Source: Archangiaceae bacterium (GTDB lineage: Bacteria; Myxococcota; Myxococcia; Myxococcales; Myxococcaceae). Taken from it: 34,727 nt of DNA. The position numbers were made by a program, and so were the translations under genes. Shown here piece by piece: positions 11,456 to 34,415 of the stretch. How positions within the stretch are numbered: position 1 is the stretch's first letter; every line of letters begins with the position of its first letter. The notes below the pieces were generated by a model that saw only the letters and a program-made list of their open reading frames with translations, made no database searches and was not told the origin of the DNA. The stretch spans positions 1 through 34,727 of the forward strand of contig JAYVCD010000119.1 in the NCBI GenBank assembly GCA_043750125.1, in the 5' to 3' direction.

Positions 11456-14400
11456 TTACGGTGTCGGCTGAGCGCCGGTTGCGAGGAAAGTCGCCATCTG
11501 GGTCTGGCCCTTCGCGCGGGCTGCGGCGCAGTCTGCGTTCGGCATTCCGATCGCGTCGCCCGGGCACGACAGCAGGTAGCTGTGACGCGGTCCGAACGGG
11601 AACCCGGGCCCCGGCTGGGCCAGGGTCACGTACGCCTGGTTCGCCGGAGTCTGGTTGGCGGCGTTGATCAGCTGAAGCGTCGTCGGGTTGGGCAAGACCT
11701 GATCGTTCTCGATGTACTGGATGTAGACCTTGCGTCCCGGGGGGACAGACTGGTTCACGCCGGTCCAGATCGCGTTCTGCGAATCGGCCGGGTCGAGGAT
11801 CATTCTCGCCAACACCATGAACTGATCGAACGCCGGCATTCCCGGACGCAAGCCGAGCGAAGCGAGGTTCCCCAGGAAGGCATCGCGCTGGGCCTGGAAG
11901 CCGGCAGCCGTGAGCAGAACCTGGATCTGATCCGAGCCCGCCACGTTGAGCCCGATGTACTTGAAGTCGGTGTTCACCGCCGACGCCATCGCTCCGTTGA
12001 AGCTGCCCAGGCTCTGTCCCGCATAGTTGATGAGTCCGGTGTTCAAGCGCGCGTTGGGGTCCGCCGCAGCAAGGCGCGCGGCAAGGCTCCCGGTCACCGT
12101 GGACGGGACTTTGAGGATCTTGATCAACATCGCAAAGTCGAGCGGCGCGTACCGGAAGTTGTCGCGCGTCGCGAAGAGGTTGGTGAGGTTCAAGAAGTTC
12201 CACGCTGCAATCGCGGGGGGACTCGAGGCGGAGGCCCGCTTGAAGTCGCCTCCCTCGCAGCGGTTGGCCGCCAGACACAGCCCCTGGCCCTGCGCCTGAC
12301 ACCCGAGATCGCCGCTGACGCCGTCTGCTCCGAAAGCGCAGGTGGCCGGGGTGAAGCTCGTTCGTGCGACGCAGCGCCCGCTGCTCGGGTCGCACTGCTG
12401 GTTGGTCGGGTTGGCGCACGCCGCGTCATCCGAGGCCTGCATCGTGGCCGCGGTCGAGCCGAGGCAGCTGGTCCGCTCACCGTGGTAAGTCACGTCGATC
12501 GCGACCGTGGCGAAGCCCGCCGATGCGGCGGCGTTGGCAAAGGCGATCATGTTGGTGCGGTTGCCGGTCAAGCCGTGACCGAAGACCAGCACCGGGAAGC
12601 CGTTGGTGGGGGTAGCCGATTTTGGAACGGTGATCAGCGCCGGGGCCCGACGAAACTGCGGCAGTCCGGCCGGAGGATTCAAAGTGCCTCCGGGCCCGGT
12701 GAGAATGAACGGAAGCGGAACCTGTGCCTGAAAGACGTTCACCCCAGTAATCAACGAGGGGGGAAACAGTGCCGAGACGTTGTTGACTGAGCTGGGCAGA
12801 GCGACGCTTTCGGGAAGCAGAGCGGGCAACCCGTTGAGCACCTTGAGCACCGAGACCGTGCTTTCCGTCTTGTAGCTGAAGGCGAGCGCCAGGTTGCGCC
12901 GGGGCAGGCCGGCCGCTTCGAGCGCGTCGAACATCGGCTTGAGCGCGGCGCGCGCCGGCTCGAGCGCGGCGGCCTGGAGATCCGAGACGCCGTTGATGGT
13001 GCTCTTCCCGGCGACGAGCAGACTGGCCCGGCTGCGCATCAGCGCGAACGCGGGCGCGGCCATCACTGCCCGGCCGGTGGTGTCTTTGAGCCCGGTGGTC
13101 ATCCAGGCCGCGTAGTTGCTGCGCTCTTCCAGCGGCCGCTGGGGAACGAACTGCAGCTGCTGCGGCGCGGGCTCGATCGAGCCCCCGTCAGGAAAGAAGA
13201 CGCCGGTGCCGCCATCGGACAGCCGGGTCGAGGCACAGTTGAAACAGGCGATCACCTTCGGCTTGAGCGGACCTGCTCCCTGCAGCTTGACGAAGCCGGT
13301 CGTGCCGCCATCGAGCGACGCGGGGTCGATCATGTCGAGGTCGATCGCCCCCCGGGTGTCCGAGTTTTCCGACACGGCCATCGCGGTCAGCGAAAAGCCA
13401 TCGAGCGTGTTGAGCCCCTGCACCAACTGCTGCTGAAGGCCCGGAGTCGTCGGCACCGGGAGGTTGACCTGGGTGCCGCCATCGGGCAGCGGCAAGGTGA
13501 GCAGGTTGTTGGGGAAGGGAATGATTCCCGCCCCGGGGTCGAAGGTCGCCTCAGGCTGATTGACGGTGCGGAAGATCCACATCAACGCCACTTCACTGCG
13601 GGGAACTCCGATCATCGTGTCGATCTGATCGAGCACCGGCGCATACCCGCGGCGAAGCCCTTCGAGGCCCAGCGCCTGGTCCCGGGTCAGAGGGGCGGCG
13701 GTGATCGCCGGCTGGCAATCGGGCGAGGCGAGATCAGCGCAGGTGACCAGCGAGTTTGCGCTGCGAACCAGGGCCCAGGTCTCGGTGCCGACCACCGTTC
13801 CACCCCCGACCTTTTTCACTCCGTTCTTCCCGCCCGCCACCACCAGCGCGAGCAAGCGACCCTTGCCCCAGCTTCCCCCCGGAGGGGCGATCTTCAGCGT
13901 GCGGGTCAGCGGATCGTAACTGAGAATGGGATCCCCGGCGAGGTCTCCACCACTGAGCGGGACGACGAACACCGTATCCGAGGTGATCGAAGCGGGGTCG
14001 AGATCGCCCCCCAACACTTCGGCGGTGCCCACGGCCGAGACCGGGAACCCGTTGAGGGTGTTGAGGTAGTCGGCAGTAAATTCTTTCTGCGCCGCGGTGC
14101 CTGCATCATCGATCGGCGCGTTCACCAGGCCGGTGGTCCGGCTGATTGCCAGATCGTTCGGAGTGGGGACGCTGGGCGGCGAGGCGGCGGGGTTGAACTG
14201 CAGCAGCGTGAAGGCGTTGGCCTTGAAGGTCCAGGCCACGACCAGGTCTCCGCGCTGAACCGAGCCGGTCACGACCTTGTCGACGACCGGCTTGTACTTC
14301 AGCCGCAGGCCCTCGAGCCGGCGCGCCGAATTGGTCTGGTCCGCCAGGCGCCCCGCCGCGTCGTCCTTGATCGCGGAAGGAATGATTTCCGTGGCGGCGC

Positions 14401-14992
14401 GGCAGTTCGTCACCCCGTCTGCTTCGCAGGTGAGCAGCGACTTTTCCGAGCGGATGAAGGCCCACGTCGCGCTGCTGACGACTTTGCGGCCATCTCCACC
14501 CTTGACCCCCGAGCCGCCCCCGATCACCGCGATCGCGTACTGGTTGCCGGGTTTCCAACCTCCGGCCGGAGGCGAGACGTTGATCCGCGCCGGAACCGCC
14601 GCGTCGCCCGTGTCGACGTAGGTGATCGCGCTCGGGGTTACGTCGGTCAGGCCGTCGGTGACGTTGAAGACCCTGACGCTCGAAGCGTTGACGGTCGCGG
14701 CGTCCAGCAGGCCGGTGAAGCTGGTCGAGGCCGTCGCGCTCAGGGGGAACCCATTGAGCGTGTTGAGGTAGGTATAAAATTCGCGATCGATCGCGCTGGC
14801 GTTCTCGGCAATCGGAACTGCCAACAGCCCCGTCGCAGGGTCGGTCGCCAGATCATTGGGCGACGGGACCACAGCCGGAACGGCCGAAGGATCAAACCGG
14901 GCGATGATCAAATCGGGAGCCGGCTCGTTCTTGATCGACGGAGTGCATGCGAACCAGGACAGGCACGCGATGGCGACGGAAAGCTTCTTCAT
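11456..14992 (-). CDS. Large lipoprotein lipase (Pla-1/VolA-like alpha/beta hydrolase) with three tandem N-terminal domains
   Basis: Lipobox WFAC (Cys16); three FDP…P.PN.L…LNTL.GF repeats; oxyanion HGLTG; nucleophile GQSLG; candidate Asp (NDQVLPN) and His (RHSYLL); Cys-rich insert. Confidence 0.85.
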   Translation of the reverse strand: MKKLSVAIACLSWFACTPSIKNEPAPDLIIARFDPSAVPAVVPSPNDLATDPATGLLAVPIAENASAIDREFYTYLNTLNGFPLSATASTSFTGLLDAATVNASSVRVFNVTDGLTDVTPSAITYVDTGDAAVPARINVSPPAGGWKPGNQYAIAVIGGGSGVKGGDGRKVVSSATWAFIRSEKSLLTCEADGVTNCRAATEIIPSAIKDDAAGRLADQTNSARRLEGLRLKYKPVVDKVVTGSVQRGDLVVAWTFKANAFTLLQFNPAASPPSVPTPNDLAISRTTGLVNAPIDDAGTAAQKEFTADYLNTLNGFPVSAVGTAEVLGGDLDPASITSDTVFVVPLSGGDLAGDPILSYDPLTRTLKIAPPGGSWGKGRLLALVVAGGKNGVKKVGGGTVVGTETWALVRSANSLVTCADLASPDCQPAITAAPLTRDQALGLEGLRRGYAPVLDQIDTMIGVPRSEVALMWIFRTVNQPEATFDPGAGIIPFPNNLLTLPLPDGGTQVNLPVPTTPGLQQQLVQGLNTLDGFSLTAMAVSENSDTRGAIDLDMIDPASLDGGTTGFVKLQGAGPLKPKVIACFNCASTRLSDGGTGVFFPDGGSIEPAPQQLQFVPQRPLEERSNYAAWMTTGLKDTTGRAVMAAPAFALMRSRASLLVAGKSTINGVSDLQAAALEPARAALKPMFDALEAAGLPRRNLALAFSYKTESTVSVLKVLNGLPALLPESVALPSSVNNVSALFPPSLITGVNVFQAQVPLPFILTGPGGTLNPPAGLPQFRRAPALITVPKSATPTNGFPVLVFGHGLTGNRTNMIAFANAAASAGFATVAIDVTYHGERTSCLGSTAATMQASDDAACANPTNQQCDPSSGRCVARTSFTPATCAFGADGVSGDLGCQAQGQGLCLAANRCEGGDFKRASASSPPAIAAWNFLNLTNLFATRDNFRYAPLDFAMLIKILKVPSTVTGSLAARLAAADPNARLNTGLINYAGQSLGSFNGAMASAVNTDFKYIGLNVAGSDQIQVLLTAAGFQAQRDAFLGNLASLGLRPGMPAFDQFMVLARMILDPADSQNAIWTGVNQSVPPGRKVYIQYIENDQVLPNPTTLQLINAANQTPANQAYVTLAQPGPGFPFGPRHSYLLSCPGDAIGMPNADCAAARAKGQTQMATFLATGAQPTP

Positions 14993-21319: not shown

Positions 21320-22166
21320 TCACAGCTTCAGGGCGAGCAGCGTGGCCCCCACGACGACGGCGAAAGCACCCAGCCATTGGCGCAGTGTGGGGGGCTCACC
21401 GAGCCACCACGAGAGCAGCAAGGCAAACACGATCGAGCTGTTGCGCAGCGTGGTCCCGAGCGCGGCTCCTTCGGACTGGAGCGCCACGAGGAACAACGCG
21501 TAGCTGCCAAAACACAGCACGCCTGCGAGCCCAAGACTCTTCCAGCGGTCGACGGCCAACCGGCCGAGCGGGCGCAAACCCACGCCCAGCATCAGCACCG
21601 CCGGGACGAGCCCGAGGCCCAGGGAAAATGCGAAGACCTGCAGGGGGTCTGCACCTTCGATCAGCGCCTGGCGAATACAGGGGTTGGAGAATCCTCCTCC
21701 CAGCCCCGCGAGCAGAGCCCACCCCGCCCCCCGGGCCAACCGCAGCTCCGAGGCGCGTGAACCGGCGAGGACGACTCCAACGACGACGAGCGCGGACGCG
21801 ACGACAGCCGGCGCCGACACGCGCTCGTTTTGGAAGAGGACCGCCAGCGGCCAGACCCACAACAGGCCGGTTCCGCGAGAAACCGCGTACGCCAGCCCCA
21901 GCGGAGCGACCTCCAGCGAGCGCGCCAGCCCAATCACATACACCCCTTCGCAAAAGGCTGACGCGATCGCCCAGCCCAGCGCGGGCCCAGAGAGGAACGG
22001 GTTTCCGCGAAACGCCGAGGCCAGCACCGCGCCGAGGGTGGCGAGGACCAGCACCACGAGTGTGGCGGCTCGAACCTGGGGTTCCCGGCGAACGGCGAAC
22101 GAGCGCGTTCCAGCTTGCGTGAAGAAACGCCGAGGCCACCACCCACGCCACGGCGCCGAAGACCAC
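21320..22166 (-). pseudogene. EamA/DMT transporter interrupted by a 1-nt frameshift
   Basis: The N-terminus VVASAFLHASWNALVRR (from 22166) is in one frame; the remainder (…LAYAVSRG…LRNSSIVFALLL…LGE) is in the 21320-22057 frame. The frames join if one base near 22084-22086 is removed. Confidence 0.8.
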
Positions 22167-30496: not shown

Positions 30497-31117
30497 GTGT
30501 ATCCAACGCGTTACCAGTTGCAGGAATTGACCGGCCATGTGGTCGCCGCTCTCGAGCGCCGTCGAGAAGGTTTCCCCGAGTGGAATGCCTCGGTCGAGGC
30601 GCGGCTGACCGACGAAGCCAGGACCGTTCTGAATGAAGCCGGACGCCAGTTCGCCGAAGTGGCCGACGACAAGCCGTATTGGGAACAGCTCGAGCGCACC
30701 GTGCTGACCGCCGCGCTTCCCCGCTACTTCCAGGTCGCGAAGGAACAGCACCACCTGGAAAAGACGAAGTACGGGCTCTGGCGGGGCGGCGATGTGATTT
30801 CCCGCGCCGCCTACGCAGCGGTCGGCCTGGTGGTGGCGGCGATCGTCTTTCGGACCGCGATCCCTGATTGGCTCGAGCCGTTGCCGCTGGGCTTCTTCAT
30901 CATCGGACCCCTGTTGCCGGACATTCAGACCTGGTTTGCCCGGCGCCGCTACGCCGCGAAGCTTCGGGCGCTGGTCGACGACATGAAGGAAGAAGCGGCG
31001 GCGCGCGAGCAGTACCGGCCGCTGACGGAAGGAACGCCCAGCGCAGTCGATGCGCAGGTCGGCTCACCGCAAAGTTCAGGGCCAGCAGAGAAACCGAAGA
31101 CCACAGGGGAAGGCTGA
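30497..31117 (+). CDS. Hypothetical protein with a helical N-terminal domain and a two-TM hairpin
   Basis: Only the 3' part of ORF 29663-31117 lies outside ftsE; GTG at 30497; hydrophobic segments AAYAAVGLVVAAIVF and LPLGFFIIGPLL; stop overlaps the next ATG (TGATG). Confidence 0.8.
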   Translation: MYPTRYQLQELTGHVVAALERRREGFPEWNASVEARLTDEARTVLNEAGRQFAEVADDKPYWEQLERTVLTAALPRYFQVAKEQHHLEKTKYGLWRGGDVISRAAYAAVGLVVAAIVFRTAIPDWLEPLPLGFFIIGPLLPDIQTWFARRRYAAKLRALVDDMKEEAAAREQYRPLTEGTPSAVDAQVGSPQSSGPAEKPKTTGEG

Positions 31118-32169
31118 TGCGCGAACGCTCGCAGGCTCAGGAATTCATTCGTCGCCGAGGACGGCTGTTGTGGCCGCTGGCGGCGTTGCTGTTCCTCGGA
31201 GTCTTCGGCTACGGCAGCTGCACCGTCTACGTCCACCCCGGCCAGTACGGGGTGAAGCAGGTCATCGTCGGCTCGGGTCAGGGAATTCAGCCCGACATCT
31301 ACCCGCCCGGGCTTCACTTTCTCACCCCGGGTGTCGAACGGATGCACATCTTGCCCGCCGAGTTGCAGGTGCTCGAGATGAGCGACGTCCCGGGCGGCGG
31401 CCACCAGCCGACCACCAACATGCGCCAGGTCTCGGCAATCAAGATCCAGACGTCCGAGGGGTACACGGTGTCGGTGGACATCACGGTGCTGTACCGAATC
31501 GAAGATGCCTACAAGGTGATGACGCAGATTGGGCCCGGCCGCTTGTACGAAGACTCAGCGGTGATTCCCCGGGCGGAACAGCAGCTGCGGCGGAAGTTCG
31601 GAGAGCTCGACGCCGAGCAGTTCTACCAGGGCGACTTTCGCGAGAAGGCCGCTCTCGAGGCGCAGCGGCTGTTGACCGACGAGCTGTCTCCCAAGGGGAT
31701 CCACGTCACCCACGTCCTGGTCCGCCAGTACCGCTACGACCAGCGCTACCAGGAAGCGATCGAGAGCCGAAAAATCCAGGACCAGACGGTATTCAAGAAC
31801 CGGGCGGAAGCGGCGGCGGCGCAGGAAGAAGCGAAGAAGAACACCATCGTCGCCGAAGGAGCGGCCCAGGTGATGACCGAGCTGGCCCGGGGCGAGGCAG
31901 AAGTAAAAAAGATTCAGTCCGAGGCGGACCTCTACAAACGAACCAAGGACGCCGAAGGCAAGCTGAAGGTCGAGCTGGCCAAGGCCCAGGGCATCGAGCT
32001 CGAGAACAAGGCGCTGCGGGTGGGCGGCAGCGAGAACATGGTGGGTCTGAAGATGGCCGAGACGCTGAAGGGAGTTGAGATTTTGATTCTTCCCAGCGAC
32101 GGAGAGAGCGGAACCAACCCGCTGGATCTCAACGCGATGCTCAAGCGGTTCGATGTGAGGGGACAGTGA
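31117..32169 (+). CDS. SPFH/Band 7/prohibitin domain protein
   Basis: N-terminal TM, V.PGQYGV…PGLHF, TSEG..VSVDITVLYRI and an Ala/Glu-rich coiled coil. Confidence 0.9.
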   Translation: MRERSQAQEFIRRRGRLLWPLAALLFLGVFGYGSCTVYVHPGQYGVKQVIVGSGQGIQPDIYPPGLHFLTPGVERMHILPAELQVLEMSDVPGGGHQPTTNMRQVSAIKIQTSEGYTVSVDITVLYRIEDAYKVMTQIGPGRLYEDSAVIPRAEQQLRRKFGELDAEQFYQGDFREKAALEAQRLLTDELSPKGIHVTHVLVRQYRYDQRYQEAIESRKIQDQTVFKNRAEAAAAQEEAKKNTIVAEGAAQVMTELARGEAEVKKIQSEADLYKRTKDAEGKLKVELAKAQGIELENKALRVGGSENMVGLKMAETLKGVEILILPSDGESGTNPLDLNAMLKRFDVRGQ

Positions 32170-33167
32170 TGAAGAACCTGGTTCTGTGGGTGGTGGGTTC
32201 GATGATGATCTCGTTCAGCGGGTGCTCGTGCCACTCGACCGGGGCGAACGAGGTCGGAGTGCTGACGCGGAAGGTCGCTCCGTTCGGGAAGAAGGGAGTG
32301 CAAGAAGAGCCCTACCCGTCGGGCGGCACCTACTTCTTCCTGCTCGGGACGACCGACTGGCATCGGTTCGAGACGAAGTTGCAGAACCTGCGAATGGTCA
32401 AAGACAGCGCGGACGACGTCGAGTTCAAGACGGTCGACGGCAACGACATCTCGGTCGACATCACCGTCGCGTGGCGCATCGACCCGGCGAAGGCGTCTTT
32501 CCTGCTGATGAAGGTGGGCGAGTCAACCCAGGACATTCAAGATCGCATCGTGCGGCCCGGTGCGCGGGCCTACGTGCGAGACGCCCTCAACAAGCTGAAG
32601 AGCGAAGAGTTCTACGAAGCCGACCGACGGTTCAAGGCGGCCGAAGAAGGCCGGGTGCTGCTGGCAGGAGCGTTGAACCCGGAAGGGGTGATCGTCGAAC
32701 AGGTGATTCTCGGCGAGCACCGCTTCAACCCCGAATACGAGGCGGTCATTCGCGACAAGAAGCTCGCCGAGCAGAATGCCGAGAAATTGAAGTCCGAGGC
32801 GCTGGCCGCGGCAGAAGGCAGCAAGCGCAACTTCGAAGCGGCGAAGGGGCAGGTGGCCCAACAGATCGCCCGGGTGGCAGGCACGCTCGCGCAGGCGAAG
32901 CTCGGGGCGAACGCGTCGCTGGTCCAGTCGAGCAATGAGGCGGAAGCGATCTTGATTGAAGCGCGCGCCAATGCTCAGGCGATCGAGAAGCGCAACGCCG
33001 CCCTCGCTGGAGCCGGGGGGAAGACGATGGTGAAGCTCGCCATCGCCGAAGCGATGATCGGCAAACGGATCATCCTCGTGCCGTCGAAGGGCGCGAACAT
33101 CCAGACCCTCGACGTGAATCAGATCGTGAACAAGATCGCAGCGGACAAGGCGCTCGACACGAAATAG
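32166..33167 (+). CDS. Second SPFH/Band 7 domain protein (possible lipoprotein)
   Basis: EVGV, TVDGNDISVDITVAWRID and a coiled coil; N-terminal hydrophobic stretch ending FSGC; start is GTG 32166 or ATG 32169, overlapping the upstream stop. Confidence 0.9.
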   Translation: MMKNLVLWVVGSMMISFSGCSCHSTGANEVGVLTRKVAPFGKKGVQEEPYPSGGTYFFLLGTTDWHRFETKLQNLRMVKDSADDVEFKTVDGNDISVDITVAWRIDPAKASFLLMKVGESTQDIQDRIVRPGARAYVRDALNKLKSEEFYEADRRFKAAEEGRVLLAGALNPEGVIVEQVILGEHRFNPEYEAVIRDKKLAEQNAEKLKSEALAAAEGSKRNFEAAKGQVAQQIARVAGTLAQAKLGANASLVQSSNEAEAILIEARANAQAIEKRNAALAGAGGKTMVKLAIAEAMIGKRIILVPSKGANIQTLDVNQIVNKIAADKALDTK

Positions 33168-33312: not shown

Positions 33313-33341
33313 GATGAATCGCGCTGGCGTTTTGCTCGATA

Positions 33342-33357
33342 CTGAACGCATATTCAG
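33342..33357. promoter_or_regulatory. Candidate Myxococcus-type LexA (SOS) box
   Basis: CTGAAC-GCAT-ATTCAG. The reverse strand CTGAATATGCGTTCAGT matches the recalled M. xanthus LexA consensus CTRHAMRYBYGTTCAGS at 15 of 17 positions. It ends 3 nt before ATG 33361. Confidence 0.65.
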
Positions 33358-33360
33358 TGC

Positions 33361-33819
33361 ATGACCGAACTCGATTTGACCCCTCCTGACGTGGCGCAGC
33401 TGGTCCAGCTCTTCTCAGCCCAGGCCGACCTTCGCTTCCCCGACTTCGACGCTGCCGTGCTGCAGGACGCATTGGTCCGGGTGAAAGAGAGGCACCTGGA
33501 AGTGGTCCGGGTTGAAGCGCAATTGCTCCAGCTGAAGGCTTCGCTGGAAGAAGAGCAGGAGTCCCTGGTCAAGAAAGCTCAGCGGGGGCTGGCCTACCTG
33601 CGGGTGTACGCCGAGCCGGACGAGGCACTGACGGCCAAGGTCAACGCGATCGTCCTGCCCCGGCCTCGACGCGCGGTGCGCCCAGAGACGGCGCCGACTT
33701 CAACGGACGAAGCGGGCGGGGTTGCTGTTGCGCCGAGGAAGCGGGGGCGACCGCGCAAGGTCGATTCGTCGTCGCTGTTCGCCGCGATGACCGAAAGCCC
33801 GGCCCCCGCCGCCGAGTGA
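33361..33819 (+). CDS. Hypothetical coiled-coil protein with a C-terminal AT-hook
   Basis: Heptad-like helix (LEVVRVEAQLLQLKASLEEEQESL), a flexible linker and a canonical AT-hook PRKRGRPRK. Confidence 0.85.
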   Translation: MTELDLTPPDVAQLVQLFSAQADLRFPDFDAAVLQDALVRVKERHLEVVRVEAQLLQLKASLEEEQESLVKKAQRGLAYLRVYAEPDEALTAKVNAIVLPRPRRAVRPETAPTSTDEAGGVAVAPRKRGRPRKVDSSSLFAAMTESPAPAAE

Positions 33820-33827
33820 CGGTCGGA

Positions 33828-33864
33828 TTGACTGTGGACTATGAGCCCACAATACTTATCCACA
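33828..33864 (+). promoter_or_regulatory. Promoter/operator of the TA module
   Basis: TTGACT-17 bp-AATACT, overlapped by TGTGGA (33833), CCCACA (33846) and TCCACA (33859) half-sites at a 13-bp period. Confidence 0.6.
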
Positions 33865-34092
33865 ATGAAGGTGATCCAGGTCTCCATGGACGAGAGGCTT
33901 CTGAAGAGCCTGGACAAGCGTCCCGAGGTAAAAAAATTAGGGCGCTCGGCGGTCCTGCGTGAGGCGGTTTATGAATACCTGCGCTCAAAGCGGAAGAAGG
34001 AGATCGCCGAAGAGTACCGTCGGGCTTACGCCGGGGGACCAGACCCCGAGTTGGCAGGGTGGGAAAAACAAGGCGTATGGCTCGAGGACTGA
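33865..34092 (+). CDS. Ribbon-helix-helix (CopG-like) antitoxin
   Basis: KVIQVSMDERLLKSLD…RSAVLREAV RHH pattern; overlaps the toxin gene. Confidence 0.88.
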   Translation: MKVIQVSMDERLLKSLDKRPEVKKLGRSAVLREAVYEYLRSKRKKEIAEEYRRAYAGGPDPELAGWEKQGVWLED

Positions 34093-34415
34093 ATCGCGGA
34101 GACATCTGGATGTACGAATTTCGTCCGCCAGACAAACGCCGACCGGTGCTCGTGTTGACTCGAAACGAGGCCATCGCGGTGCTCGACTCGGTCACCGTCG
34201 CGCCCATCTCCACGACCATCCGCCGGATCCGAAGCGAAGTTGAAGTGGGAATTGCTCAGGGCCTCAAGGCTCCGTCCGCAATCAATCTCGACCATCTGCA
34301 AACAGTTTCAAAGTCGGCGTTGAAGCACTTCATCGGCACGGTGGATCTCCGCACGCTCGATCGGGTCTGCCATGCAATGGAACACGCTTTGGGCTGCCGC
34401 GATCTCGACTCGTGA
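34077..34415 (+). CDS. mazF: MazF/PemK family endoribonuclease toxin
   Basis: RGDIW…KRRPVLVL…VTVAPISTT…INLDHLQTV motifs. Confidence 0.92.
   Translation: MARGLNRGDIWMYEFRPPDKRRPVLVLTRNEAIAVLDSVTVAPISTTIRRIRSEVEVGIAQGLKAPSAINLDHLQTVSKSALKHFIGTVDLRTLDRVCHAMEHALGCRDLDS

Follow-up and report, generated by a model that had tools for sequence, protein, structure and literature searches.

Gene and candidate LexA operator at the locus

The window, that is, the whole 34,727-nucleotide stretch of DNA analysed, carries close to its right end a gene for a 152-residue protein, and a candidate LexA operator lies directly upstream. The gene and the features found in and around it are listed below.

33338..33343, plus strand: GATACT, a conserved GA[TC]ACT hexamer that overlaps the left edge of the box and is -10-like in many homologous loci
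33341..33357, no strand assigned: ACTGAACGCATATTCAG, candidate LexA operator; CTGAAC-N4-ATTCAG forms an imperfect palindrome, and the A on its 5' side is conserved
33349..33354, plus strand: CATATT, within the box and 6 nt short of the ATG; resembles a -10 hexamer and is a possible promoter element for a leaderless transcript
33361..33819, plus strand: gene for the 152-residue protein, stop codon included; supported by homologues and a GC3 of 0.80
33361..33675, plus strand: N-terminal helical domain (residues 1-105), ending in a conserved LPRxRR; predicted antiparallel homodimer
33676..33732, plus strand: variable linker (residues 106-124); pLDDT 74 and then 44, with residues 114-122 below 50
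33733..33759, plus strand: AT-hook PRKRGRPRK (residues 125-133), with an R-G-R-P core and basic flanks
33772..33780, plus strand: conserved S-L-F (residues 138-140), 5 residues past the hook; putative partner-binding or degradation signal

No other possible start lies between the upstream stop codon and the ATG, which aligns with the N-termini of the homologues (M-x-D/E-x-D-L). The palindrome, CTGAAC-GCAT-ATTCAG, occupies 16 bp (33342-33357) and is followed by TGC (33358-33360) and the ATG at 33361; it thus ends 3 nt before the start codon, as the original prediction had it. The right half-site reads ATTCAG, compared with GTTCAG in the Myxococcus xanthus consensus. The claim of a match at 15 of 17 positions to CTRHAMRYBYGTTCAGS holds for the minus strand (33341-33357), whereas the plus strand (33342-33358) gives 14 of 17.

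We found one copy of CTGAAC-N4-GTTCAG with at most one mismatch in the window, against 0.12 expected, and 10 of 100 shuffled sequences contained at least one. The degenerate 17-mer with at most two mismatches occurred twice, against 1.27 expected, and at least two copies were seen in 38 of 100 shuffles. Because shuffled sequences match this often, the window alone does not place the site beyond chance, and its significance has to be decided by comparison across loci. A Pfam search of the 38 open reading frames of the window turned up no recognisable SOS gene to act as an internal control of the box.

Conservation of the operator box across Myxococcota

Related loci were scanned using a 12-row subset of a 27-row alignment, which yielded at least 22 loci (with L001-type labels, e.g. 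L003 and L022). The scan patterns are specific to the subfamily of the window protein and leave out Myxococcaceae-type loci such as that of M. xanthus. Among the loci listed, the box precedes the homologous gene in all 21 that hold upstream DNA; L019 holds none and was left out of this count. Twenty of the 21 have at most one mismatch to ACTGAAC-N5-TTCAG, and L022 has two. With at most one mismatch, this pattern occurs 21 times in 225,062 bp (the window plus the 22 listed loci), and every copy lies just 5' of a homologous gene (the window and 20 loci), with none elsewhere. The expectation of a LexA box conserved upstream of orthologues was therefore confirmed among these loci. Information content in the listed loci is near maximal inside the box and about zero in its flanks. 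The left half CTGAAC is kept in 18 of 22 family sites, and the first base of the right half-site is G in 7 of 22.

Loci bearing the box include members of Kofleriaceae and Nannocystaceae, whose proteins are merely 30-44% identical. Four of the listed loci (L018, L020, L021 and L022) score higher against the M. xanthus protein MXAN_0268 than against the window protein, and all four carry the box. None of the 8 neighbouring genes of the window, used as queries, was found in any of the 22 listed loci. The neighbours vary by clade, with a DUF2461 gene downstream in 6 loci and the family gene located between tsf and pyrH in 3, and no operon partner conserved across the family was found among the listed loci. 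The gene probably belongs to the LexA/SOS regulon of Myxococcota as a monocistronic unit of its own.

The LexA motif of M. xanthus is given in the available text of Sheng et al. 2021 (PMC9705874), where it is credited to Campoy et al. 2003. Gel shifts in that text are limited to four sites: those of recA2 and lexA were shifted, that of pafBC only weakly, and that of recN, with two deviations, was not shifted by LexA. A 15 of 17 match is thus no guarantee of LexA binding. Similar boxes are also mentioned there for three genes that are described as 'function-unknown' and not named. In our own comparison, the family box shares 10 of 12 specified positions, in the same register, with the recA2 site ACTAAAAGCGCGTTCAG (PMC9705874), and 3 of the 17 positions in the box of L003 deviate from that site. 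Like the recA2 and lexA operators of M. xanthus, the family box has the same length and register, a CT-purine-N-A-[AC] left half, a TTCAG right half and a core-promoter placement. Unlike them, it is more palindromic and usually has A rather than G before TTCAG. From this resemblance we infer that LexA would bind the family box directly.

The promoter elements around the box were also compared. The GA[TC] columns before the box are conserved across the listed loci, and a TTG-type -35 hexamer lies 16-18 nt 5' of GA[TC]ACT in 11 of 22 listed loci, the window not being one of them. In 4 of 22 listed loci, the box contains an A/T-rich hexamer that is preceded by a -35 element at 17-18 nt. L004 (AATATT), L020 (TATCAT) and L022 (TATGCT) have a hexamer placed like CATATT; in these, the box is followed after 2-3 nt by the start codon, and a TTG-type -35 is found at 18 nt. 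The window shares with these three loci the gap of 2-3 nt between box and start and a single possible start. No -35 hexamer fitting CATATT was found in the window, and a promoter scan found no sigma-70-type promoter 5' of the gene and none at CATATT. We found no GGAG, GAGG or AGGA in the 16 nt before the ATG, consistent with the predicted lack of a Shine-Dalgarno sequence; such tetramers are present in 9 of 22 listed family loci. Translation of the window gene may begin on a leaderless transcript.

Protein family, AT-hook and predicted dimer

A first search returned 27 homologues of the window protein at E<=0.001, and a wider search returned 895 cluster representatives at this threshold and 809 at E<=1e-10. 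Pfam found no domain in the N-terminal part, and neither NCBIfam nor PADLOC gave a match for it. PHROGs likewise gave no match for the N-domain, and a single weak, function-unknown match to the tail of MXAN_0268 (E 0.0089). A search of the PDB with the AlphaFold2 model returned 0 fold matches at E<=0.001 (best E 1.7), and ESM Atlas matches were unnamed clusters, mostly from Myxococcota. The family is large, is covered by neither Pfam nor NCBIfam models, and lacks a relative of solved structure.

The AlphaFold2 model, built from the 27-row alignment, has a mean pLDDT of 80.8, with helices at residues 9-20, 31-83 and 88-96. Residues 11-100 lie at block pLDDT 88-97, and the tail from about residue 105 is of low confidence. 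The linker varies in length and sequence in the homologue alignment. The original prediction described a 152-residue product with a coiled coil, a linker and PRKRGRPRK, and the open reading frame, the long-helix N-domain of the model and the position of the motif agree with this description. It also described the protein as oligomerising. This holds for a dimer, since a homodimer model of the N-domain passed the controls with two copies modelled, but nothing beyond a dimer was supported. The homodimer scored 0.60, against 0.12 for the best control; among proteins of solved structure, 20 of 30 that form pairs of one chain pass the mark used for this score, compared with 1 of 23 that were solved as single chains. 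At least 85% of contacts recur between runs, the partner's pLDDT is 79 or higher, and the contacts 55-51, 62-48 and 69-41 indicate an antiparallel arrangement. Dimerisation of the N-domain is thus a model-supported prediction.

The Pfam AT_hook model (PF02178) matches the window protein weakly (E 0.041; 14.2 bits, under the 17.4-bit cut-off), and 34 of 150 family members reach E<=0.1. R128 and R130 are nearly invariant in these 150 sequences. Exactly one [RK]GRP core is present in 328 of the 384 family proteins compared and none in 56, and a basic-flanked hook core was found by pattern in 326 of the 384. The family profile hit the AT-hook regions of yeast Orc2 (E 0.018) and GLYR1 (E 0.16) among PDB sequences, and no others. 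L139 of the S-L-F is nearly invariant (27 sequences). Of the 328 proteins with a hook, 258 have an LF on its C-terminal side at a distance of 5-15 residues (median 8), most commonly in the form A-S/P-L-F. The conserved motif suggests that the protein would bind DNA through its AT-hook. With the predicted dimer taken into account, we consider it reasonably likely that the family protein binds A/T tracts as a dimer.

HMGA carries three hooks per chain and CarD four. In the family, as in both of these, the R-G-R-P hook motif is of canonical form, has basic flanks and lies in a disordered region, but there is one hook per chain (328/384), and valency would come from dimerisation. Pfam found no CarD_CdnL_TRCF domain in the window protein or in 150 members. 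The 'H-NS/Lsr2-like logic' of the original prediction stands as an analogy of architecture but not as homology, which the Pfam, PDB fold and PDB sequence searches did not indicate. As in H-NS, Lsr2 and MvaT, an N-terminal helical self-association domain is joined by a flexible linker to a C-terminal arginine motif of the minor-groove-reading type. In contrast to these proteins, the DNA-reading part is a bare hook rather than a folded domain, expression appears damage-induced rather than constitutive, and only a dimer was modelled. None of the tools used pointed to descent from H-NS, Lsr2 or CarD.

DNA damage response of the M. xanthus homologue

MXAN_0268 of M. xanthus DK1622 (ABF86883.1, Q1DFM4; annotated as 'hypothetical') belongs to the same family, with 39% identity over its full length. 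It has the same helical N-domain, LPR motif, linker, single AT-hook (RRRGRPPK), SLF and Ala-rich tail. It differs from the window protein in length (174 against 152 residues) and in coming from a different lineage, a cultured member of Myxococcaceae.

In the available part of Table S1 of Jung et al. 2025 (PMC12288472), MXAN_0268 is significantly increased after mitomycin C treatment (log2 fold change 8.13 at 5 h and 7.04 at 10 h) and in the lexA deletion compared to the wild type (6.66), and ddiA deletion has no effect on it. The corresponding values (5 h, 10 h, lexA deletion) are 7.75, 6.51 and 6.86 for RecN, 2.85, 3.44 and 4.09 for RecA2, and 2.79, 2.68 and 4.72 for UvrA (PMC12288472). The response of MXAN_0268 is on a par with that of RecN. 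A log2 fold change near 8 probably reflects the near-absence of the protein in untreated cells. MXAN_0268 appears in this supplementary proteomics table and is absent from the main-text discussion in the available text of the paper (PMC12288472); in the literature searched we found it in no main text, the supplementary-table mention being the only one. It was not found in the available part of the supplement of Sheng et al. (PMC9705874), where every row examined in parts 2-3 of Table S5 shows a negative fold change, so that its absence is uninformative.

The predicted response of expression to DNA damage is thus borne out by the available published proteomics for the homologue (PMC12288472), and the conserved box together with these data supports the description of an uncharacterised, DNA-damage-inducible protein. 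Damage induction and lexA derepression were shown for MXAN_0268 only, the organism of the window being uncultured. The box was read at loci of the window's subfamily and the proteomic response at MXAN_0268, so that the link crosses between family members, and derepression of MXAN_0268 in the lexA deletion could be indirect. Taken together, we regard LexA-dependent damage induction of the family gene as very likely.

Proposed mechanism and alternative explanations

We favour, with moderate confidence, a reading in which an SOS gene, transcribed on its own and repressed by LexA, encodes a DNA-binding protein that acts as a bivalent dimer through its AT-hooks. In the undamaged cell, a LexA dimer would sit on the 16-bp palindrome and cover the -10/start region of the promoter. 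Upon DNA damage, RecA-stimulated self-cleavage of LexA would free the promoter, and the protein would go from near-undetectable to abundant. Two chains would pair in antiparallel orientation to form a coiled coil of about 50 residues, with a flexible tail at each end carrying one AT-hook, then the xSLF and then an acidic/alanine-rich end. Because there is one hook per chain and two chains, the dimer would bind DNA bivalently. Short A/T tracts are scarce in such GC-rich genomes; the two hooks would enter the minor groove of these tracts, and the dimer would bridge two DNA segments or span two tracts; we hold bridging with less confidence than the reading as a whole. The SLF motif may recruit a partner or mark the protein for removal after repair.

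SulA, SidA and YneA are small, LexA-controlled, lineage-restricted inhibitors of division that act after damage in other bacteria and have no DNA-binding motifs, while SlmA and Noc exemplify a DNA-tethering logic. The window-family protein resembles the first three in being small, apparently LexA-controlled, lineage-restricted and damage-only. Under the same regulation, it may therefore be a nucleoid-anchored division inhibitor, in which the AT-hook tethers the dimer and the N-domain or the SLF blocks the divisome. We consider this possible but unlikely. It is in line with the filamentous growth of the M. xanthus lexA deletion, which lexA complements (Jung et al. 2025, PMC12288472), and MXAN_0268 is among the proteins raised by both lexA deletion and mitomycin C. 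The available main text of that paper has no SulA, its sole mention of a division inhibitor being Caulobacter didA, and none of the literature titles returned by a search names an SOS division factor of M. xanthus, the titles covering reviews and other organisms instead. However, 78 proteins rise in the lexA deletion (PMC12288472), so that MXAN_0268 is one candidate of many, and Pfam, NCBIfam, PDB fold and PDB sequence searches found no similarity of the family to any known division inhibitor.

The LF that follows the hook in 258 of the 328 members with a hook would also suit a role at the replisome or origin. The consensus for binding the beta clamp is QL[SD]LF, and the last three residues of the family motif fit its [SD]LF end. 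The SLF would then be a degenerate clamp motif, the AT-hook would direct the protein to the A/T-rich unwinding element of oriC, and, under the same regulation, the protein would delay initiation or fork progress while repair is under way. A/T tracts are scarce in this genome region (about 58-71% G+C), which is in keeping with such targeting. However, the Q at position 1 and the L at position 2 of the pentapeptide are absent, only xSLF is kept, and P/A/T, S/G, A and S/P are the preferred residues at the positions ahead of LF. We regard this role as improbable.

A very low probability is given to the palindrome being the operator of a regulator other than LexA, either a second damage repressor or the protein itself, with an indirect lexA effect. 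Against the protein itself, no AT-hook is known to read a 16-bp palindrome. Regulation by LexA is deduced from sequence and homologue proteomics, and the first base of the right half-site departs from the LexA consensus in 15 of 22 family sites, usually to A. According to the available texts of PMC9705874 and PMC12288472, part of the damage response of M. xanthus is moreover independent of LexA, and DdiA and PafBC act as further regulators. On the other hand, the agreement in register and positions with the gel-shifted recA2 site (PMC9705874) and the indifference of MXAN_0268 to ddiA deletion (PMC12288472) argue for LexA, and conservation across at least four family-level lineages fits a universal regulator. 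A chance palindrome before an ordinary hypothetical gene, or a spurious reading frame, might be suspected from the non-significant match within the window. This was ruled out with next to no probability left to it: the box is present in 21 of 21 listed loci and absent elsewhere in the 225 kb, the family has 809 cluster representatives at E<=1e-10, and the M. xanthus homologue was detected as a protein (PMC12288472).

Implications for the SOS response of Myxococcota

LexA regulons always include lineage-specific genes of unknown function, and here such a gene and its operator are conserved across Myxococcota. Published accounts disagree on the direct targets of myxobacterial LexA beyond recA2 and lexA. 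The probably LexA-repressed AT-hook family is a candidate for the question of which further targets are direct, and also a candidate for the cause of filamentation in lexA-deletion M. xanthus, an organism that already offers deletions, proteomics and microscopy for its study.

A damage-induced reader of A/T tracts in a GC-rich genome would be a new type of SOS effector. As a rather doubtful extension of this reading, the family may be the missing SOS checkpoint effector of myxobacteria, a damage-induced, nucleoid-anchored dimer on rare A/T tracts such as the origin unwinding element. In that case the N-domain or the SLF would stop the initiation of replication or the division of the cell until the damage has been repaired. 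Such an effector would be the first in the bacterial SOS response to use an AT-hook, and it would explain why M. xanthus filaments when lexA is deleted.

A candidate LexA operator at the start codon

The palindrome CTGAAC-N4-ATTCAG in the window ends 3 nt ahead of an ATG (...gat ACTGAAC GCAT ATTCAG tgc ATG...), and the 16 nt preceding this codon contain no GGAG, GAGG or AGGA, so that the originally predicted spacing and lack of a Shine-Dalgarno (SD) tetramer were both seen. The predicted match to the M. xanthus LexA motif CTRHAMRYBYGTTCAGS, quoted in Sheng et al. 2021 (PMC9705874), was borne out on the minus strand (15/17); the plus strand agrees at 14/17. The features of this region are:

30868-32169, +, first of two tandem SPFH/Band 7 genes upstream (Band_7 E 2e-28)
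32166-33167, +, second SPFH/Band 7 gene (Band_7 E 7.5e-20; 4-nt overlap)
33342-33357, palindrome CTGAAC-N4-ATTCAG, found in the sequence
33361-33819, +, 152-aa ORF; the ATG at 33361 is the earliest start codon possible in frame
33828-33856, promoter-like site of the toxin-antitoxin pair, TTGACT-17-AATACT
33841-34092, +, RHH/CopG antitoxin (Pfam RHH_1 E 7.7e-5)
34059-34415, +, PemK/MazF toxin (Pfam E 3.4e-17)

Taken from the window by itself, the evidence for the box is weak: a palindrome at no more than one mismatch was reached in 10 of 100 shuffles of the window, and two degenerate-motif matches at no more than two mismatches in 38 of 100. A second 15/17 match to the LexA motif, CTGCACCTTCGATCAGC (21649-21665, +), is located where several overlapping ORFs lack a Pfam match; it looks like chance, two such matches being within chance expectation. 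Elsewhere, a 1,178-aa ORF (11456-14992, -) without a Pfam match at E<=1e-5 adjoins a FadL-type outer-membrane transporter gene.

The box is conserved with the gene in Myxococcota

One genome per species was scanned with patterns fitted to the window's subfamily, and at least 22 loci were found, all in Myxococcota MAGs (labelled Myxococcales, Archangiaceae/Archangium, Myxococcaceae, Kofleriaceae or Nannocystaceae). ACTGAAC-N5-TTCAG at no more than one mismatch is located immediately 5' of the homologue in the window and in 20 of the listed loci. Since locus L022 has a box with two mismatches and L019 is cut within the gene, with no upstream DNA, the box is kept 5' of orthologues in 21/21 listed loci having upstream DNA. 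No further copy at this stringency (one mismatch at most) was found in 225,062 bp on both strands. In the box-aligned upstream regions, information is near maximal over GA[TC]ACTGAAC and TTCAG and falls to about zero on either side; the base preceding TTCAG is usually A, and G in 7/22.

None of the window's 8 neighbour genes, used as queries, was found in any of the 22 listed loci, where the neighbours vary by clade: DUF2461 downstream in six, tsf/pyrH flanks in three and unrelated genes elsewhere. On sequence grounds, a gene that travels with its box is the pattern of a putative self-contained, monocistronic regulated unit. The type II toxin-antitoxin pair that adjoins the window gene downstream (33841-34415, +; genes overlapping by 34 nt) is absent from all these loci and thus lies outside the SOS unit. 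In L005-L009 and L017, a DUF2461 (PF09365) gene lies directly 3' on the same strand (e.g. L006 685-1359, L009 5443-6144) and may be co-transcribed with the homologue in that clade; the window has no such gene. In L010, L011 and L013, homologue and box are inserted between tsf (EF-Ts) and a pyrH-like amino-acid-kinase-family gene, a pair widely conserved elsewhere.

A TTG-type -35 hexamer was found 16-18 nt ahead of GA[TC]ACT in 11/22 loci, a spacing which explains the conservation of the three bases before the box and places the box over the -10 and start site. In 4/22 (L004, L007, L020, L022), the box itself holds an A/T-rich hexamer with a -35 at 17-18 nt upstream, and 7/22, window included, have neither arrangement by the criteria used; a general promoter scan found no site upstream of the window gene. 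An SD-like tetramer is present in 9/22 loci. In the window, L004, L020 and L022, the sole possible start is 2-3 nt past the box, and the hexamers 5-6 nt before it are CATATT, AATATT, TATCAT and TATGCT, respectively. A leaderless transcript is plausible for the window gene; a leaderless start would not be a family-wide trait.

Induction of the M. xanthus homologue

By cluster look-ups we found MXAN_0268 of M. xanthus DK1622, which has the same parts as the window protein and is 39% identical to it over the full length. Table S1 of Jung et al. 2025 (PMC12288472) labels it 'Hypothetical' (COG S) and gives log2FC values of 8.13 (5 h) and 7.04 (10 h) with mitomycin C and of 6.66 for a lexA deletion, all flagged significant; the ddiA comparisons were not so flagged. 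The corresponding values were 7.75/6.51/6.86 for RecN, 2.85/3.44/4.09 for RecA2 and 2.79/2.68/4.72 for UvrA. Changes of about 2^8 probably arise because a protein is nearly absent before treatment. Thus, the predicted DNA-damage inducibility holds for this homologue. Four homologues from Kofleriaceae and Nannocystaceae (L018, L020-L022) obtain better scores with MXAN_0268 than with the window protein and carry the box, and so bridge both subfamilies. The same table gives RecA1 (MXAN_1441) a log2FC of 3.42 in the lexA deletion; RecA1 is reported elsewhere as LexA-independent, and this is among several points on which the two lexA studies of M. xanthus disagree.

In the gel shifts of Sheng et al. 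(PMC9705874), M. xanthus LexA clearly bound recA2 and lexA, weakly bound pafBC and did not bind recN. The recA2 site ACTAAAAGCGCGTTCAG and the family box share the same register and 10/12 specified positions, and the box of L003, a related locus, differs from the recA2 site at 3/17. Sites with two mismatches bound LexA poorly in that study, whose text counts five genes only as direct targets and one of whose figures presents further box-bearing 'function-unknown' genes. MXAN_0268 is absent from the negative-fold-change rows of its Table S5, which are uninformative for induction. Derepression of MXAN_0268 in the lexA deletion may be indirect; a regulator other than LexA is unlikely. Pure chance, the concern raised by the shuffles, is likewise unlikely beside the conserved boxes. 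The regulatory part is a candidate LexA operator of the ordinary Myxococcus type.

A protein family with one predicted AT-hook

A word-indexed search gave 27 proteins at E<=0.001 of 307 candidates, none named. When a profile was run against 1.84 billion cluster representatives, 895 matched at E<=0.001, of which 809 reached E<=1e-10 and 46 reached E<=1e-30. In the ESM Atlas, the window protein falls in unnamed clusters, known members being mostly Myxococcota. A profile search with names found members in cultured Myxococcaceae (Stigmatella, Corallococcus, Pyxidicoccus, Archangium, Hyalangium, Myxococcus), and because of it the sample of 384 proteins is Myxococcaceae-enriched; P0138 (1,290 aa, multi-hook), matched only via its hooks, was left out. 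Exactly one [RK]GRP core is present in 328/384 (basic-flanked in 326) and none in 56/384. Of the 328 single-core proteins, 258 have LF at 5-15 residues (median 8) past the hook. Forty of the 384, including the window's (...PAPAAE, 33811-33819), have -A[AG]E or -xAE as their last residues, possibly a C-terminal signal for recognition or degradation. One family protein, P0376, is labelled 'Comamonas sp. JC664' and shares a 90%-identity cluster with a Myxococcus hansupus protein; a wrong label or a mixed assembly is the probable cause.

Pfam gave the window protein an AT_hook match below threshold (residues 125-135, E 0.041); a Pfam coiled-coil match was dismissed as spurious. NCBIfam, PADLOC and PHROGs searches gave no match. 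The AlphaFold2 model (27-row alignment, mean pLDDT 80.8) has short helices at 9-20 and 88-96 and a 53-residue helix at 31-83, with the conserved loop LRFPDFD between the first and the long helix; the remainder is low-confidence. Foldseek of the model against the PDB gave no match at E<=0.001, and the family profile matched solved structures only in the AT-hook regions of yeast Orc2 and GLYR1. The window protein is outside every described family.

A two-copy model of residues 1-105 scored 0.60 versus 0.12 for the best of 3 controls, above the tool's mark, which 20/30 proteins solved as one-chain pairs and 1/23 solved as single chains reach. Contacts agreed by at least 85% between runs (partner pLDDT >=79). 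The closest (55-51, 62-48, 69-41, 72-37) indicate antiparallel pairing of the long helices, so that the two tails would exit at opposite rod ends. The N-domain is thus predicted to be an antiparallel homodimer, and the earlier term 'oligomerising' has the model's support for a dimer.

Proposed role in the SOS response

We propose that LexA would repress the promoter overlapped by the box, and that damage would lift repression and let the protein accumulate. It would form an antiparallel dimer with one AT-hook per end, giving bivalent binding to A/T tracts in a region of ~58-71% G+C. The conserved SLF and frequent -AAE ending suggest possible partner binding or timed removal. Under the same regulation, the protein could instead serve as a nucleoid-anchored division checkpoint, a reading prompted by the filamentation that Jung et al. 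(PMC12288472) report for lexA-deletion cells; our literature search of titles and abstract openings found no SOS division inhibitor of M. xanthus described. A replisome or origin role would act through a degenerate clamp-binding motif, but the canonical Q-L positions are absent from the family.

The predicted 'H-NS/Lsr2-like logic' survives as layout (self-association domain, linker, arginine minor-groove motif) and not as kinship: H-NS and Lsr2 are unrelated to the family in Pfam, PDB fold and PDB sequence searches, as are CarD and HMGA. Titles and abstract openings described no bacterial LexA-controlled AT-hook protein; among the papers matched, those containing 'LexA regulon' lack 'AT-hook', and vice versa. 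The locus tag MXAN_0268 was not found in the main text of any paper in the literature searched. We rate the family as an SOS effector of new architecture, visible yet unremarked in published proteomics.
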